A stretch of DNA of 64,000 nt. It comes from a virus. The stretch covers positions 32,001-96,000 of the IMG/VR virus record IMGVR_UViG_3300042402_001861. The stretch is one strand, 5' to 3'. A program made the translations under genes and the position numbers. Shown here one piece after another: positions 1-63,197 of the stretch (position 1 is the stretch's first letter; every line of letters starts with the position of its first letter). The notes under the pieces were generated by a model. The model did no database searches. It was not told where the DNA came from and saw only the letters and a program-made list of their open reading frames with translations.

Positions 1-702
1 TATCAGTTTCTTCCATTGTCGCTGCTGAAGTCAAGAACTCCAAGCGTCAAGTACCACCACACACCCACGGCAAGGAATCCCGAAACAGGCGGGATTTACA
101 TGAAGAAGGAATTCTTCAACATTCTTTCCTACTCCGTGAACTCCCGTGGCGACAAGATGCGAGAGATTGCTTCAGGCGTGTATAGCAACAACGCCGTGTC
201 GCTTGACATCATTGGCAAGCGAGCCAACATGGAGATTTATGCCTACTTCTCGCAGCGAAAGAGAATACCGACCATTTCAGAACACCCCTTGGTTCCCACT
301 CTCTCGGATGATCTTAGCCTGAACATCGGTGCGTATCAAAAGTTCTTCCCCAAGCATTCTTTCAGGTACGACGGCGTGGAAGACAATGATGAACTTGAGG
401 TTGTTTCTACCAGAAGGCAGTCACAGATGAATGCCTTTAGGACACATAGCCTGACGATTGATGTCAATGGAGATTCCAGAAGAAGAGCGGGAGAAGTTGT
501 ATCAATTGACATCCCGAGCGTGGAGAATCCAAAGAACAAGGACGATTGGTTTGATCCATTCCTCTCTGGTAAATACATGATAACGAGCATCCTACATGAG
601 ATAGGCGATGGAAGTTACAACATGAAGATGGAAGTAATGAAGGATGGCTATGACGAGAAACTTGCGGATCAGCAATCCTTTGGTGTAGACGGGACGATTT
701 GA
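1..702 (+). CDS. Baseplate hub/tail protein (gp27-like), 5'-truncated by the window edge
   Basis: Frame is open to base 1. C-terminal 'LTIDVNGDSRRRAGEVVSIDIP...FLSGKYMITSILHEI' resembles the hub-type gene that precedes gp5 in T4-like phages. Confidence 0.6.
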   Translation, partial: YQFLPLSLLKSRTPSVKYHHTPTARNPETGGIYMKKEFFNILSYSVNSRGDKMREIASGVYSNNAVSLDIIGKRANMEIYAYFSQRKRIPTISEHPLVPTLSDDLSLNIGAYQKFFPKHSFRYDGVEDNDELEVVSTRRQSQMNAFRTHSLTIDVNGDSRRRAGEVVSIDIPSVENPKNKDDWFDPFLSGKYMITSILHEIGDGSYNMKMEVMKDGYDEKLADQQSFGVDGTI

Positions 703-55218: not shown

Positions 55219-55629
55219 TCAAGCCTCCGTATTATCTATTGATTTTGAAGATTCGGCGGTTTCGATGTCCTTGGCGTACTTCTCAAACGCTTCCTCGCAT
55301 TGTTCGCGAGTGAGGAAAGGCCCGAAGAAATCCGTTGAGGCTTCGTTCCAGAAAATCCACCCCATGTGAACGGGGGAATAATCAACCGGATCGTTCTTAC
55401 GCAACTTGATCACGCTTGCCTTGGGGTTGTTGTAACGCTCGTTGGCAACCTTCTGATAGGTGCTGATCCACTCGCAAACCTCAAAGTCTGCGGGGAAGTG
55501 CTTGAGCAGATTCCGTGCCCGTTGCCGAATTGGCTTTGGAACCTTCGGAGACTTCTCGGGGTCCATCAAGTCCTTCAGGAAATTGCGAGTGTTCATGAGC
55601 GAAATGTAGTTTTCGTAAGGCAGCGTCAT
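55219..55629 (-). CDS. Hypothetical protein
   Basis: 'MTLPYENYISLMNTRNFLKDLMDPEKSPKVPKPIRQRARNLLKHFP'; GGAGG SD. Confidence 0.75.
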   Translation of the reverse strand: MTLPYENYISLMNTRNFLKDLMDPEKSPKVPKPIRQRARNLLKHFPADFEVCEWISTYQKVANERYNNPKASVIKLRKNDPVDYSPVHMGWIFWNEASTDFFGPFLTREQCEEAFEKYAKDIETAESSKSIDNTEA

Positions 55630-55630
55630 G

Positions 55631-55909
55631 TCAACCTCCGTATTGGTCAGGAATCATTTCATCTGCAAGCAAGGCAACCGACAATTCTCTAATCACCTTG
55701 TATGCCCAAGTTCGCCGTTCTTCCTTCATGGAATCGGGCAACCTTTCATACGGCACGAAATTCTTTTTCATTTCCTGTGCCTCGTCTTGGTTGATCTTGC
55801 CCGAATCGATGAGATTGGAGACTATCGACAGCCAATGGGCGTGTTCGATTTCCGCCATCCGTTCGATGAACTTCGGATCATTGATCGTCTGTATTGGGCT
55901 TTGCTTCAT
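55631..55909 (-). CDS. Hypothetical protein with RyR-repeat-like motif
   Basis: 'MAEIEHAHW...FVPYERLPDSMKEERR'. Confidence 0.6.
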   Translation of the reverse strand: MKQSPIQTINDPKFIERMAEIEHAHWLSIVSNLIDSGKINQDEAQEMKKNFVPYERLPDSMKEERRTWAYKVIRELSVALLADEMIPDQYGG

Positions 55910-56168
55910 TTGGCTTTTCCTTCGCCACGCTCACAGCGAGGACTTGTTGCAGTTTGCTGAGAGTGTTCTTGAGAAAGTCCCGACTTGGAATCACGCCGGG
56001 GCGAGGATACACGGCAGAATCAAGAACCATCTTGAGTCGATTGAGCAATGCTTCCTTGCTTTGAAGCCTTTCCTCAAGTTCGCGATAGCGAATGCGATCA
56101 GCCTCGGTTGGCTTTCCTTGCCATCCGAGCATCATGTCCCCAATTCGATTTCTGATCGTTCTCTTCAT
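55878..56168 (-). CDS. Hypothetical protein
   Basis: 96-aa ORF co-oriented with its neighbours. Confidence 0.6.
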   Translation of the reverse strand: MKRTIRNRIGDMMLGWQGKPTEADRIRYRELEERLQSKEALLNRLKMVLDSAVYPRPGVIPSRDFLKNTLSKLQQVLAVSVAKEKPNEAKPNTDDQ

Positions 56169-56202
56169 GGCGAATCCCCATCCTACACATTATGTAGGTT
56201 GT

Positions 56203-56655
56203 CTAACGGGAATGCCTCTTCCGTGCTGCAAAGAATACTGCAATGCCAAGGACAGCAAGGGCACCCGGCGCAGGAACATCAGGCGGTTCACAATCTGCGC
56301 CATTGGCTAGCGTCGAAGCAGCCATGCAGACGCTTTCGACCCGATCATGGATAACAGGAATGAACATCTCCTGATCCACTCCCTGAACGGTCATCACAAG
56401 CCGTCCTTCATTGTAGATTTTGTGAATCCAGAATCCTTGGAAAGATCCCATGAAGTGCTTGTTTGGCACGACAGGATAGTTTGCCACCGTGTTGCCGTAA
56501 ATCGACGGTGCGATGGGTTCTGTGATCGTGAACTGCGTGTCAAACACCAATCGGTCGGTGAAGGTGACTTCTTGGTAGATTGCGCCTTGATACTCAGACC
56601 GCGAGAAGGTCTGGCCGTTTGTCATGTACAGGGTTGATGTATTGCTGATAGCCAT
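56203..56655 (-). CDS. PEP-CTERM-like (VPAPG variant) sorting-signal protein
   Basis: C-terminus 'DVPAPGALAVLGIAVFFAARKRHSR': motif, transmembrane helix, basic tail. Start at ATG 56655 lies just after the promoter. Confidence 0.8.
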   Translation of the reverse strand: MAISNTSTLYMTNGQTFSRSEYQGAIYQEVTFTDRLVFDTQFTITEPIAPSIYGNTVANYPVVPNKHFMGSFQGFWIHKIYNEGRLVMTVQGVDQEMFIPVIHDRVESVCMAASTLANGADCEPPDVPAPGALAVLGIAVFFAARKRHSR

Positions 56656-56662
56656 TTGGATC

Positions 56663-56691
56663 AGTATAGGCACGAACGCAATTCAGGTCAA
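56663..56691 (-). promoter_or_regulatory. Sigma70-like promoter giving a leaderless start
   Basis: TTGACC-N17-TATACT, 7 nt, ATG. Confidence 0.8.
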
Positions 56692-57068
56692 GTGTTTGCT
56701 TGCGTGAATTTGGCGATTCCGCTGCCCGTGGTGTAGTAGATGTTGTCAAACACTTCCATGCACCAAGGCAGACACTTGGGACATGGGCGACTCAGCCTTT
56801 CATTGCCGAACCGATTGAACCTGAAATTCCAAAGTTCAATGCCTTCCCTGTCTTCGCACTTTCTAAATGCATCAAGTTCAGAGTGCAGTTCATCGAAAAG
56901 GTAGCCGTACTTCTTTGCCATTGGATGGGTCTTCATCAGGTTTGTCCCAACGGAGATCACCCGTCCTCTCTTGAGGATGATGCTGCAATGGCGCTTCGGC
57001 CTGTCAATGTGCAGGCAGAGTTCCTTTGCAAGGCTGTAGATGTTGCACGGACAGTCGATGTTCTTCAT
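56688..57068 (-). CDS. Cytidine/dCMP deaminase-fold protein
   Basis: 'HCSIILKRGRVISVGTN', 'LHSE', 'SRPCPKC' zinc motifs. Confidence 0.8.
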   Translation of the reverse strand: MKNIDCPCNIYSLAKELCLHIDRPKRHCSIILKRGRVISVGTNLMKTHPMAKKYGYLFDELHSELDAFRKCEDREGIELWNFRFNRFGNERLSRPCPKCLPWCMEVFDNIYYTTGSGIAKFTQANT

Positions 57069-57475
57069 GCCGTCAGGGCATACGAAGTGCTGTAATTATT
57101 TTCGAGATTTCCGTTGGTCAACGACAAATCCGACTGCTGCTTCTTGATCAAGACTTTCCCGTCTTCATCAAGAACGGGAACAAGCCCATCCTTGATGTAT
57201 TCGTCCCACAATCGCCTCGCTTCTTCCCGAGTCACGGTGAGCATGGTTGTCTTTCCAATCATGCTTGTGCCGTCAGGAAGTCTCCGAATGAACACAGTCA
57301 TGTGATCGGTGGATTCCGGCTTCTTGAGCGAAACGCCATCACGGAACACTTCTGCAAAAGCAAACTCAACGGTGTGTGGCAGGCTTGCGGTGTCGAAGCC
57401 AACCGGTGCCGTCAGCGTGTAGTAGAAAGTGATGACACAGAAACCGTTTGCGGGTTGGTTGTTGAATTCGCCCAT
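57065..57475 (-). CDS. Hypothetical protein
   Basis: 136-aa ORF coupled to the deaminase (ATGA overlap). Confidence 0.65.
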   Translation of the reverse strand: MGEFNNQPANGFCVITFYYTLTAPVGFDTASLPHTVEFAFAEVFRDGVSLKKPESTDHMTVFIRRLPDGTSMIGKTTMLTVTREEARRLWDEYIKDGLVPVLDEDGKVLIKKQQSDLSLTNGNLENNYSTSYALTA

Positions 57476-57693
57476 TCCCGCATCTTATCAGATGTCTTCT
57501 TGTGTGTCAAGCGAGAATTTTCACGCTGCTTGGCTTTGTAAAGACCTTCTGTCATGCCACAATGCTTTCCGATCCCATAACCTCGCTTATACCCGAAACT
57601 GTAAAGCCAGATTTGCGATGCGGTCAGTAGGGTTGCGAGGGAGATTCCAAAAAAGACTGTTTCGATTACTTCCAATGCTTTGATGTTTACCAT
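57412..57693 (-). CDS. Small membrane protein
   Basis: 'VFFGISLATLLTASQIWLYSFGYKRGYGIG'; ATG 57693 lies 5 nt after a CATACT box. Confidence 0.55.
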   Translation of the reverse strand: MVNIKALEVIETVFFGISLATLLTASQIWLYSFGYKRGYGIGKHCGMTEGLYKAKQRENSRLTHKKTSDKMREWANSTTNPQTVSVSSLSTTR

Positions 57694-57745
57694 AGGACAG
57701 TATGTTGCCCTTCGCAACTTTTGAACCAAACCTGAATGTTTGAAA

Positions 57746-58045
57746 TCAGGATCGGCGCTTGACCGTCTTCTTGGCGATCTTCTTCGTCTTGGTCTTCAAC
57801 TGTGTGATGACCTCGGCTTCCTTCCGTGCCTTTCGCTTGTTGATGTACTCAATGATGATGGACGGCTCAAGCAGGCCAAAGAGGGTAAAGAATGCCCCAA
57901 ACAGCATATATTCCTTGCCGTGGTTGCTGCCGAGCGAGAACCAACACATTGCCATCAGTCCGCAACCAAACCCAAACCAACGGGTAAAGATCATGTCACC
58001 GATGTTATACGAATTGTCGCCAATCTTTTCCTTGATGAGTCTCAT
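57746..58045 (-). CDS. Two-helix membrane protein with basic tail
   Basis: GGAGG SD before ATG 58045; two hydrophobic segments; Lys-rich end. Confidence 0.65.
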   Translation of the reverse strand: MRLIKEKIGDNSYNIGDMIFTRWFGFGCGLMAMCWFSLGSNHGKEYMLFGAFFTLFGLLEPSIIIEYINKRKARKEAEVITQLKTKTKKIAKKTVKRRS

Positions 58046-58344
58046 TGTGAAGCCTCCATTGCTTCTTCTAGGGTGCATCGAACCATGAAGCCGGGTGTGC
58101 CTTCGCCCATCCATGCTCCAACTACATTGTGTTCCATCCATTCGATGGCTTCTTCCTCTGTGGGAATGCCTTGAGCCAAGAGTATACCAACACACTTCTG
58201 ATAGTCATAGACAAATATCGCCGGTTTTCCGACTCTTCGAATGACTCCGATGAATGCCTTCTCAAAGCCATCGGCCTTGAGTGTTTCATTCAGGTTGGGC
58301 TTGACTTCATCCCAAGTCTTCTTGGGCTTCGCTGTCTCGCTCAT
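58042..58344 (-). CDS. Conserved-type phage hypothetical protein
   Basis: 'KADGFEKAFIG...VYDYQKCVGIL...EEAIEWMEHNVVGAWMGEGTP'. Confidence 0.75.
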   Translation of the reverse strand: MSETAKPKKTWDEVKPNLNETLKADGFEKAFIGVIRRVGKPAIFVYDYQKCVGILLAQGIPTEEEAIEWMEHNVVGAWMGEGTPGFMVRCTLEEAMEASQ

Positions 58345-58972
58345 AGTCGCTTTCCTTCAACTTTCTCTGGATCTTCTTGGCCCAGATTTCCATGATTGAC
58401 AAAGGATACTCAATCGACTCAAACTTGAAGCCTCGGGCGGTGGGAGAATTGCGTCCCTTGACCAACTGCGTGTAGATGCCGTCCAACTTCATCGGGCTGA
58501 ATTCACCGATTGGTGCAACGACATTCATACCTGGCCATGCATCTGCCCGTGTGCCGATTAGGACTGCATCCTTGCGATTGGGATCCTTGAATAGGACGCA
58601 ATCCTGCCCAAACTTCTGTCCCATGCGCTTGGCGAATCCCTTCACGGCTCCTACCTGTGCAGGGCTGTTGTCCCTGCCGATGACCATGAAGGATTCCTCG
58701 GTGACCTTTACCTTCTTGTCGCCGTAATCTTCCTCGTATCGTCCGAGCATCTTGACGAACCCGAACCCCGCAGAGCGAATGTCATTTTCCAACTTTGCAT
58801 TGTTGGAACGATTGGTCTGCAAGGAGATAAGTTCTCCTGTCTGCTTGTCCTTGAATCGGAACGCAGTAAGCAGGGCAAACGGGCGATCCTTGATATGCGA
58901 AGCAACTCGCGAAAGCGAGATTTCGTTGAGTGGCTGACGGTCGAATCTGTCGTTTGTATCGTCATCATGCAT
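58307..58972 (-). CDS. Hypothetical protein (T4-like 'LNE-SLSRV' family)
   Basis: 'LNEISLSRV...FALLTAFR...LENDIRSAGFGFVKMLGRYEE...EESFMV...KFGQDCVLF'. Confidence 0.7.
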   Translation of the reverse strand: MHDDDTNDRFDRQPLNEISLSRVASHIKDRPFALLTAFRFKDKQTGELISLQTNRSNNAKLENDIRSAGFGFVKMLGRYEEDYGDKKVKVTEESFMVIGRDNSPAQVGAVKGFAKRMGQKFGQDCVLFKDPNRKDAVLIGTRADAWPGMNVVAPIGEFSPMKLDGIYTQLVKGRNSPTARGFKFESIEYPLSIMEIWAKKIQRKLKESDYERDSEAQEDLG

Positions 58973-59153
58973 CGCTTGCGCTCCCGTTTGAATCCTGATT
59001 TCTTGAGTTCTCCAACTGTATGTAGAGTCTCTTGATTTCCTCAAACGCCTTGGAAGAAGTGAACTTCCCTTCCTTCTCCAATTGCAAAATCCATGCTGTC
59101 TTTCTCGCAAACTCTCCGATGTTCGCATGGACAATGAAATCTTCAATAAGCAT
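58965..59153 (-). CDS. Hypothetical protein
   Basis: 62 aa; AAGGA SD; 'EGKFTSSKAFEEIKRLY.QL'. Confidence 0.65.
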   Translation of the reverse strand: MLIEDFIVHANIGEFARKTAWILQLEKEGKFTSSKAFEEIKRLYIQLENSRNQDSNGSASDA

Positions 59154-59181
59154 GAAAGTCCTTTCTTTGGTGACTAGTGAG

Positions 59182-59520
59182 TGGAGATGAGGGGAGTCGA
59201 ACCCCTGTGTTGAAATGACCTACGCAACGGCACCTACATGAATAGTCCCTGTCTGTTGTACTTGCCTTGGGCAGGGACACCCTTGGCAAGTTTTTCGCCG
59301 TTCATCTTATGAACCAAAGCACGGCGAAGGCTTTGTGTTCAAGTCCCGATGTCTTCGAATCGTACCCTATCGGGGTCAGTCACGATTCGTTCGCCGCTTA
59401 AGCAGCGAGGGCAAGTCTGCGGTTGGCAGTTCTTGTTTTGATTGCATTTTTACGAAGCCTAGCAATCTTCTTCGTCATGCTCCGTTGTTTTGCTCATCCA
59501 ATCGAAACCTATTCATCCCC
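59182..59520 (-). ncRNA. ssrA: tmRNA (SsrA), one-piece
   Basis: 5' GGGGATG pairs with 3' CATCTCC-A including the G3:U70 Ala determinant; T-arm AGGGG-TTCGACT-CCCCT; tag frame 59398-59427 reads GCC AAC CGC AGA CTT GCC CTC GCT GCT TAA = ANRRLALAA*; CCA not encoded. Confidence 0.95.
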
Positions 59521-59525
59521 AAAAA

Positions 59526-59635
59526 GGTTAGGAGGGATTTTCACCCTCTTTCCTGCTTCATCGGTCAATTGAGTAGACCGTTTTACGCAGGCGAGTCTCT
59601 TGTCAAGACCGTGTGTTCATACCACACCGCTAACC
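59526..59635 (-). ncRNA. Candidate structured tRNA-like ncRNA
   Basis: Nested helices GGTTAG/CTAACC, GTGTG/CACAC, CCTGC/GCAGG enclosing CGGTC/GACCG, and GAGGG-TGAAAAT-CCCTC; no ORF; ends 5 nt before ssrA. Confidence 0.55.
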
Positions 59636-59652
59636 AAACGAATCCAAGTGAA

Positions 59653-59847
59653 TTACTTGGCAACAGCAGTCGTGACGATTTGCCAAGCGGCGGTCAGCCC
59701 CTCGGCCACAAAGTTCACGCCCTGCCAAGCGAACGGCAGCAGAGCAAGCGTGATCATGAGGCTGCGGGTAACGCCGACCTTCGAAAGAAGGCACGACAAC
59801 TTGTCACAACCACCTGTGACCGGGCAACTGTTCTTAACCTTATCCAT
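59653..59847 (-). CDS. Small membrane protein with Cys-rich N-terminus
   Basis: AAGGAG SD; 'MDKVKNSCPVTGGCDKLSC...SLMITLALLPFAWQGV'. Confidence 0.75.
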   Translation of the reverse strand: MDKVKNSCPVTGGCDKLSCLLSKVGVTRSLMITLALLPFAWQGVNFVAEGLTAAWQIVTTAVAK

Positions 59848-62907: not shown

Positions 62908-62978
62908 TTCTCCCGCTAGGATTCGAACCTAGACAAGCAGGACCAAAACCTGCTGTGCTACCGTTACACTACAGGAGA
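62908..62978 (-). tRNA. tRNA-Gln(TTG)
   Basis: Acceptor TCTCCTG/CGGGAGA (U1-A72), anticodon arm GCAGG-TTTTGGT-CCTGC, T-loop GGTTCGAATCC; no CCA. Confidence 0.93.
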
Positions 62979-63037
62979 GCATTTATGCTGCCCTGCGTTG
63001 GTGATGGTTGTTCATGTGACTCATTGCGACTCAAGAA

Positions 63038-63044
63038 TATTTAG
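63038..63044 (-). promoter_or_regulatory. Late promoter box in the tRNA-Lys/tRNA-Gln spacer
   Basis: CTAAATA on -, 3 nt after the tRNA-Lys discriminator base. Confidence 0.55.
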
Positions 63045-63047
63045 GAA

Positions 63048-63120
63048 TGCTCTCGGCGGGACTTGAACCCACAACCAATTGATTAAAAGTCAACTGCGCT
63101 ACCGATTGCGCTACGAGAGC
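63048..63120 (-). tRNA. tRNA-Lys(TTT)
   Basis: Acceptor GCTCTCG/CGAGAGC, anticodon loop CTTTTAA, T-loop GGTTCAAGTCC; no CCA. Confidence 0.95.
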
Positions 63121-63124
63121 GTAG

Positions 63125-63197
63125 CGTCCCTGACTGGATTCGAACCAGTAGCCTACTGCTTAGAAGGCAGTTGCACTATCCATTATGCTACAGGGAC
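63125..63197 (-). tRNA. tRNA-Arg(TCT)
   Basis: Acceptor GTCCCTG/CAGGGAC, anticodon arm ACTGC-CTTCTAA-GCAGT, T-loop GGTTCGAATCC; no CCA. Confidence 0.95.

Follow-up and report, generated by a model that had tools for sequence, protein, structure and literature searches.

A structured RNA element of 110 nt, encoded directly upstream of the tmRNA gene of a T4-like virus, belongs to a phage RNA family that is new and well supported and whose general kind is known. Stable tRNA-like RNAs without known function, such as species 1 and 2 of phage T4, were recognized in phage tRNA clusters about 50 years ago, and the element represents a second such family, unrelated to these T4 species. The element is probably an independent, single-copy phage gene, whose product, a stable structured RNA of ~110 nt, would be released from a tRNA/tmRNA precursor and act in trans. 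The covariation that supports the family is strong, and its restriction to phages provides a clean experimental handle.

Locus and fold of the element

The stretch of DNA analysed (the window, 64,000 nt) comprises bases 32001-96000 of the source record, a T4-like IMG/VR virus of 177 kb that is ~98% complete by estimate. The following features, all on the minus strand, were recognized at the locus.

59526..59635, minus strand: structured RNA element, 110 nt; supported by the MFE fold, by matches to covariance models R1 (130 bits) and R2 (123 bits) with the same coordinates, and by covariation counts
59521..59525, minus strand: U-run of 5 nt separating the element from G1 of the tmRNA; not conserved as such, 5-11 nt of mixed sequence standing here in relatives
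59179..59520, minus strand: one-piece tmRNA (ssrA), full-length; RF00023, 129.3 bits, model positions 1-374; CCA not encoded
59653..59847, minus strand: 64-aa ORF upstream of the element; no Pfam match; C-terminus and stop codon kept in the closest relatives
59644..59660, minus strand: small hairpin across the stop codon of the 64-aa ORF; resembles a weak terminator; present in only some relatives

The original prediction had described here a cloverleaf-like RNA, situated in an ORF-free gap of ~130 nt and followed by five T residues leading into ssrA. This description was borne out: the five T residues (59521-59525) run into a full-length ssrA gene (RF00023, 129 bits), and the stop codon of the 64-aa ORF (59653) is separated from the tmRNA by 132 nt, where the only ORFs listed are mechanical ones. 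No promoter-like site was found between the 64-aa ORF and the element in a scan of the window locus, and a search with the covariance model identified a single copy of the element in the genome to which the window belongs.

The three tRNA genes of the window (62908-63197, minus strand) and the tmRNA gene do not encode CCA and have spacers of 3 nt, implying that host processing is already needed for these neighbouring RNAs. Genes for a CCA-adding enzyme and for SmpB were absent from the 177-kb, ~98% complete phage genome, indicating that the phage relies on host enzymes for both; a gene for Ro60 (TROVE, PF05731) was likewise absent from it.

Two genes directly follow the tmRNA (58310-58972 and 58968-59153, minus strand), encoding a DUF7219 protein and a 221-aa protein of the S-adenosylmethionine lyase family (PF23780, E = 7e-11); the latter, judged by this family match, may be a candidate anti-restriction SAMase. 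Altogether, the seven ORFs flanking the element in the window matched DUF7219, an S-AdoMet-lyase-like family or DUF5856 in Pfam, or had no match. A WYL-like protein had been put forward as a possible partner of the RNA, and no protein partner, WYL-like or other, was found to be conserved beside the element. When the ORFs located at up to 5 kb from the element at 30 loci were clustered, no family accompanied the element in all lineages, and the widespread neighbour families were either without a Pfam match or GDP-mannose dehydratases.

The unconstrained MFE fold of the window element consists of a closing stem and four hairpins, and reproduces all the helices that had been predicted on the minus strand, at the same coordinates. 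Its free energy is -41.5 kcal/mol, as compared with a mean of -25.9 +/- 3.5 for 200 shuffled sequences (z = -4.44), none of which (0/200) folded as well. With the element numbered such that position i corresponds to window position 59636-i, the parts of the fold are the following.

1-6 with 105-110: P1, closing stem, 6 bp in the window
9-13 with 21-25: P2, D-like arm, 5 bp; 7-nt loop at 14-20
26: conserved G separating the D-like from the short arm
27-30 with 38-41: P3, short arm; loop at 31-37
45-49 with 80-84: P4, long arm
50-55 and 75-79: invariant A-rich internal loop of the long arm, 6 nt and 5 nt
56-60 with 70-74: P4b, inner helix, 5 bp; variable loop at 61-69
88-92 with 100-104: P5, T-like arm, 5 bp; 7-nt loop at 93-99; abuts the 3' strand of P1

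P3 was assigned 4 bp by comparison, as relatives do not keep the outer G-U pair seen in the MFE fold; its loop can be read either as 7 nt or as 5 nt closed by a U-G pair.

A phage RNA family with covarying helices and invariant loops

The first relatives were two IMG/VR contigs reached through a flanking protein, in which the element likewise precedes a tmRNA of this type. Further members came from motif scans, three on viral and one on metagenome contigs, whose matches were filtered by covariance model. The resulting family comprises 43 loci with 36 distinct sequences, all on contigs of uncultured phages or metagenomes; as the phages sampled are related in part, locus counts do not correspond to independent events. 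The 43 loci score 52-140 bits, full-length members reaching 69-140 bits under R1 and 95-129 bits under R2, and the next-best model matches are ordinary tRNAs at 24.5 bits or less. The covariance model built from the relatives places the window element at exactly 59526-59635.

A check against Rfam, as proposed with the original prediction, revealed no known family, and the element is thus novel to Rfam 15: a scan of the window at the gathering score assigned it to none, and at E<=10 neither the element of the window nor that of the divergent member L039 matched any family, the tRNA model RF00005 (family threshold of 29 bits) included. The sole Rfam overlap on the element consisted of a local T-arm match to tmRNA and of a sub-threshold match to the permuted-tmRNA model, which aligns the last hairpin with the tRNA T-arm. 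Likewise, no family covered the element at the loci of 13 relatives at the Rfam gathering score. Two pattern scans of prokaryote genomes (185,579 species genomes) detected no copy. BLAST searches of 50,697 deposited phage genomes, with three members and their flanks as queries, never matched the element, the matches falling only on the flanking tRNA-Tyr or on the T-arm of the phiCbK tmRNA. The family thus appears to be confined to uncultured phages, as far as these searches go. No description of the element was found in the literature consulted, the catalogue of 10,006 candidate viral structured RNAs (PMC10690425) aside. A covariance model of the family would fill a recurrent "empty gap" beside phage tmRNA and tRNA genes in genome annotation.

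Comparison of the homologues, which had been proposed as a check of the RNA, revealed clear covariation. Across the 36 distinct sequences, 98.1% of 1078 alignment cells are standard pairs, against 80% in column shuffles and 30-42% when the pairing partners were slid by 1-3 columns. Double-sided changes occur in 20 of the 30 base pairs, with at least one in every helix, and the covariation score is 0.52, compared with 0.19 for shuffles. The family alignment was fitted to the model and hence somewhat favours the structure, and the same compensatory changes are seen in plain MAFFT alignments. Frequent G-U pairs, 17 of them at a single P3 pair, fix the strand from which the RNA is read.

About 45 positions, unpaired or within helices, are invariant, and unpaired positions remain constant across clades whose stems differ. 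Invariant positions include the 3' half of the D-like loop, four pairs of the inner helix P4b, which never vary, and, in the T-like arm, both inner G-C pairs together with a T-loop of the pattern U, G/U, N, A, A. The loop of the short arm reads GA(N)AA closed by U-G, only the middle N being variable; this pattern may recall GNRA-like pentaloops such as that of P22 boxB. At the tip of the long arm, the loop differs among members in length and sequence, and an inserted hairpin occurs in two of them. Mutual information among unpaired columns revealed no loop-loop covariation, only clade-level signals. All listed members (36 distinct sequences, not independent samples) have a pyrimidine directly before the closing stem, which fits a U-rich tRNA trailer or the preference of RNase P at position -1.

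These data bear on the alternative that the element is a tRNA pseudogene in decay, a mere terminator or a fold arisen by chance. Neither ARAGORN nor the tRNA model calls it, as would suit a decayed tRNA, and a U-run lies on its 3' side in the window. Compensatory changes in 20 of 30 pairs, 98% pairing over 36 distinct sequences, invariant loops and the maintenance of a single copy in many phage lineages nonetheless make this origin extremely improbable. An intrinsic terminator was rejected separately: the terminator scan makes no call, and L010, L013, L055, L005 and other relatives have mixed sequence in place of the U-run. Identity with a simple terminator, which had been named as grounds for abandoning the prediction, is therefore contradicted by the lack of conservation of the U-run; missing covariation and a match to a known family, named there as further grounds, do not apply either.

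Positions relative to tmRNA and tRNA genes

At every locus the element lies on the same strand as the neighbouring tRNA or tmRNA genes and 2-20 nt away from them: 2-5 nt past the 3' end of the upstream tRNA-like gene and 3-20 nt ahead of the 5' end of the downstream one, where present. Five contexts were distinguished. In the window and four close relatives, the element stands between an ORF and a one-piece tmRNA gene. In ~20 loci it forms the spacer that parts the acceptor piece from the coding piece in a circularly permuted tmRNA gene (ARAGORN, RF04321). In a third group it occurs between ordinary tRNA genes (Val|Pro, Arg|Gln or Tyr|Pro); the contigs of the Arg|Gln group, which are up to 100 kb long and incomplete, contain no tmRNA of either form, and the contigs with the element that are free of tmRNA are one of 100 kb and three others. 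The fourth context places it after tRNA-Tyr and directly upstream of a whole two-piece tmRNA gene. In the fifth, represented by L060 and L057, an intact element (105 bits) stands beside a tmRNA remnant.

The remnant in L060 (2650-2870), and likewise that in L057, resembles a decayed two-piece tmRNA in which the T-arm and 3' strand of the acceptor piece persist and are followed by the element; of the coding piece only ~25 nt of the 5' end are left, in which the first two acceptor pairs are disrupted, and beyond these nucleotides lie an intrinsic terminator and then a protein gene. In L065 (529-916, minus strand), the spacer of a permuted tmRNA is shared by the element (738-850) and a tRNA-Pro with a high score (656-729). 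A tmRNA database paper (PMC11915505) notes one permuted tmRNA whose spacer contains a tRNA-Ala, the only case of a tRNA in a spacer in the literature consulted.

The element is located directly 5' of the tmRNA 5' end, in a one-piece gene or as spacer, in ~30 of the 43 loci, and a tmRNA is found within 1 kb of it at most loci, so a role linked to tmRNA may exist. The element nevertheless lies outside the mature tmRNA: the RF00023 match covers 59179-59520, and in permuted genes the element falls within the unmodelled insert that separates acceptor and coding pieces. The co-transcription with tmRNA that had been proposed is in agreement with the element abutting the tmRNA with no promoter-like site between them; the association is, on the other hand, not specific to tmRNA, as the element also occurs between tRNAs, in split tmRNAs and beside a decayed tmRNA.

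Alignment of the window (59170-59640) with L066 (8585-8889) related the two arrangements. The last 34 nt of the window tmRNA, comprising the T-arm and the 3' strand of the acceptor, align to L066 directly upstream of its element, and the window element plus the first 23 nt of the tmRNA align contiguously onward. The element/one-piece form and the acceptor/element/coding form are thus circular permutations around the same gene. Tandem duplication of either tmRNA form contains the other, and subsequent loss would then give the switch, as is expected from the arrangement. In one-piece and two-piece tmRNA genes alike, the junction is occupied by the element, which is the footprint expected from tandem duplication and loss, and a "tmRNA leader" is just one of its possible positions. 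It follows that the supposed "junk" spacer of a two-piece phage tmRNA can itself be a conserved gene.

The same positions could be explained by a module acting in cis on the maturation or folding of pre-tmRNA, which would keep the acceptor ends accessible, guide RNase P and 3' processing, and have no function after its excision. The ~30 loci with the element directly 5' of the tmRNA agree with such a module, as do the short, single-stranded spacers flanking the element and the 100-140-nt helix-closed spacers that the two-piece tmRNAs of phiCbK and Melnitz likewise possess. We regard it nevertheless as improbable, since the element is present between ordinary tRNAs in tmRNA-free contigs, remains intact where the coding piece of the tmRNA is deleted, and has ~45 invariant positions, far beyond the needs of a passive spacer; moreover, the phiCbK and Melnitz spacers are unrelated to it.

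Close relatives of the window carry a Pistol ribozyme (RF02679, 53-61 bits) 2.6-3.3 kb downstream of the element (L002 5040-5107, L003 5028-5095 and L010 8492-8559). No Pistol ribozyme was found at E<=1 in the syntenic stretch of the window (55500-58400). Small ribozymes tend to cluster, and the element might in principle be a new self-cleaving ribozyme that helps to cut the RNA array, considering that it is a junction-rich, conserved phage RNA whose close relatives have Pistol nearby. This is very unlikely: the element resembles no Rfam ribozyme family, the window lacks Pistol, a 2',3'-cyclic phosphate left on the upstream tRNA would impede CCA addition, and the tRNA-like layout is a simpler account of the shape.

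The reading that we prefer is, as stated above, that of an independent gene for a trans-acting RNA. The element behaves like a gene that settles at any site from which host tRNA processing would excise it. It would be transcribed as part of the tRNA/tmRNA precursor and released by the enzymes that mature the neighbouring RNAs. RNase P, by cutting at G1 of the tmRNA, would define the 3' side of the element, as expected from established tmRNA and tRNA maturation, and cleavage or trimming of the trailer of the upstream tRNA or, in the window, of mRNA would define its 5' side. The freed RNA would then act in trans, tentatively as a non-decoding tRNA mimic whose invariant loops might bind a host or phage factor that recognizes tRNA. 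Conservation of the loops despite turnover of the stems, persistence without tmRNA, and the single copy together argue for a specific fold that binds a conserved partner; a passive spacer suits these three properties less well.

Likeness to tRNA and to other phage RNAs

The order of arms in the element is that of class II tRNAs (tRNA-Ser, tRNA-Leu and bacterial tRNA-Tyr): closing stem, 2-nt linker, D-like arm, purine, short arm, long extra arm, and a T-arm on the closing stem. In each of the 36 distinct sequences, P5 directly adjoins the 3' strand of P1, as in the stacking of the tRNA T-arm on the acceptor, and the T-loop has the exact tRNA consensus in L079 and L112. The only outside matches of the family models, all of them weak, are to tRNAs with a long arm (19-24 bits), for example T4 tRNA-Ser. 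ARAGORN did not call the element, while calling three tRNAs elsewhere in the window.

Several features set the element apart from tRNA. Its closing stem has 5-8 bp, in contrast to the 7 bp of the tRNA acceptor, with variable 3' neighbours and neither CCA nor a conserved discriminator; P3 has 4 bp and a G at the position of U33, whereas the anticodon arm has 5 bp and U33; and the extra arm, of ~40 nt with an invariant internal loop, differs from that of class II tRNAs. The element is therefore tRNA-shaped but not a decoding tRNA, and is perhaps derived from tRNA. The lack of a discriminator and of CCA, together with the 5-8-bp stem, suggests that it is possibly a poor substrate for RNase P, the CCA-adding enzyme and synthetases, and the label "mimic" may overstate what it is. 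Of the tRNA-mimic ncRNA originally proposed, the shape was thus upheld (arm order, stacking of the T-arm, a structured RNA); a function as a mimic is tentative.

A more specific version of the trans-acting gene would make the element a new class of phage tRNA mimic: a decoy or inhibitor of a host tRNA-targeting defence nuclease or of a tRNA-processing or tRNA-modifying enzyme, or else a cofactor that redirects trans-translation, released by host RNase P early in infection. A decoy for anticodon nucleases had already been suggested as an example in the original prediction. Such a function is conceivable but rather unlikely. Were a decoy or cofactor role true, it would add an RNA player to the conflict between phage and host over tRNA and ribosome rescue.

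YrlA is a bacterial Y RNA of ~100-120 nt, non-decoding, with a tRNA-like module bound by Ro60/Rsr, and is present in some phages. As an identity for the element it was rejected, there being no Rfam Y RNA match, no TROVE/Ro60 gene in the phage genome, and a different helix layout.

The intervening segment of two-piece tmRNA is another parallel. The element is exactly that segment in ~20 relatives; the window, in contrast, has a one-piece tmRNA downstream. Intervening segments elsewhere, in bacteria, phiCbK and Melnitz, are unrelated to the element in sequence, and the element exists also away from tmRNA. The tmRNA spacers of the cultured phages phiCbK and Melnitz, 100-140 nt long and closed by a helix, have no separate RNA annotated; as candidate family members, both the phiCbK spacer (L068 3027-3130) and the Melnitz spacer (L125 6077-6218) proved unrelated, and model R2 had no match in the 35-kb Melnitz region.

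A glutamine riboswitch adjoins the two-piece tmRNA of the OM43 phage Melnitz (PMC9004378), and its presence was confirmed here (RF01739, L125 6399-6447). Like the element, it is a structured RNA tightly linked to tmRNA in a T4-like aquatic phage; unlike the element, it belongs to a known aptamer class and stands 3' of the coding piece, not in a spacer or leader position. This precedent, and an intricate junction of several helices in which nucleotides of the junction and loops are invariant, would be compatible with a riboswitch-like aptamer that senses a ligand and controls read-through into, or processing of, the downstream RNA. We consider this quite improbable for the element, as no Rfam riboswitch class matches it, it has no expression platform, and the U-run after its closing stem is not conserved; in addition, a regulated ORF never lies downstream, the place being taken by tRNA, tmRNA, terminator or plain spacer.

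The nearest counterparts of the independent gene that we favour are the T4 stable RNAs of species 1 and 2 (rnaC and rnaD), which are excised by tRNA-processing enzymes and have no known function. Homology with them was rejected: on the T4 locus L034, models R1 and R2 matched only tRNA-Ser (19.8 and 22 bits) and not 1409-1672, and rnaC and rnaD have another helix layout and lack the invariant motifs of the family. In the annotation of AF158101, the small rnaC and rnaD measure 119-139 nt and close a T4-type phage tRNA cluster, in the same orientation as the cluster and only a few nt from a tRNA. The element shares this position, on the same strand and within a few nt of a tRNA-like gene, and T4 rnaC, like the element, ends in a tRNA-type T-arm and a closing stem.
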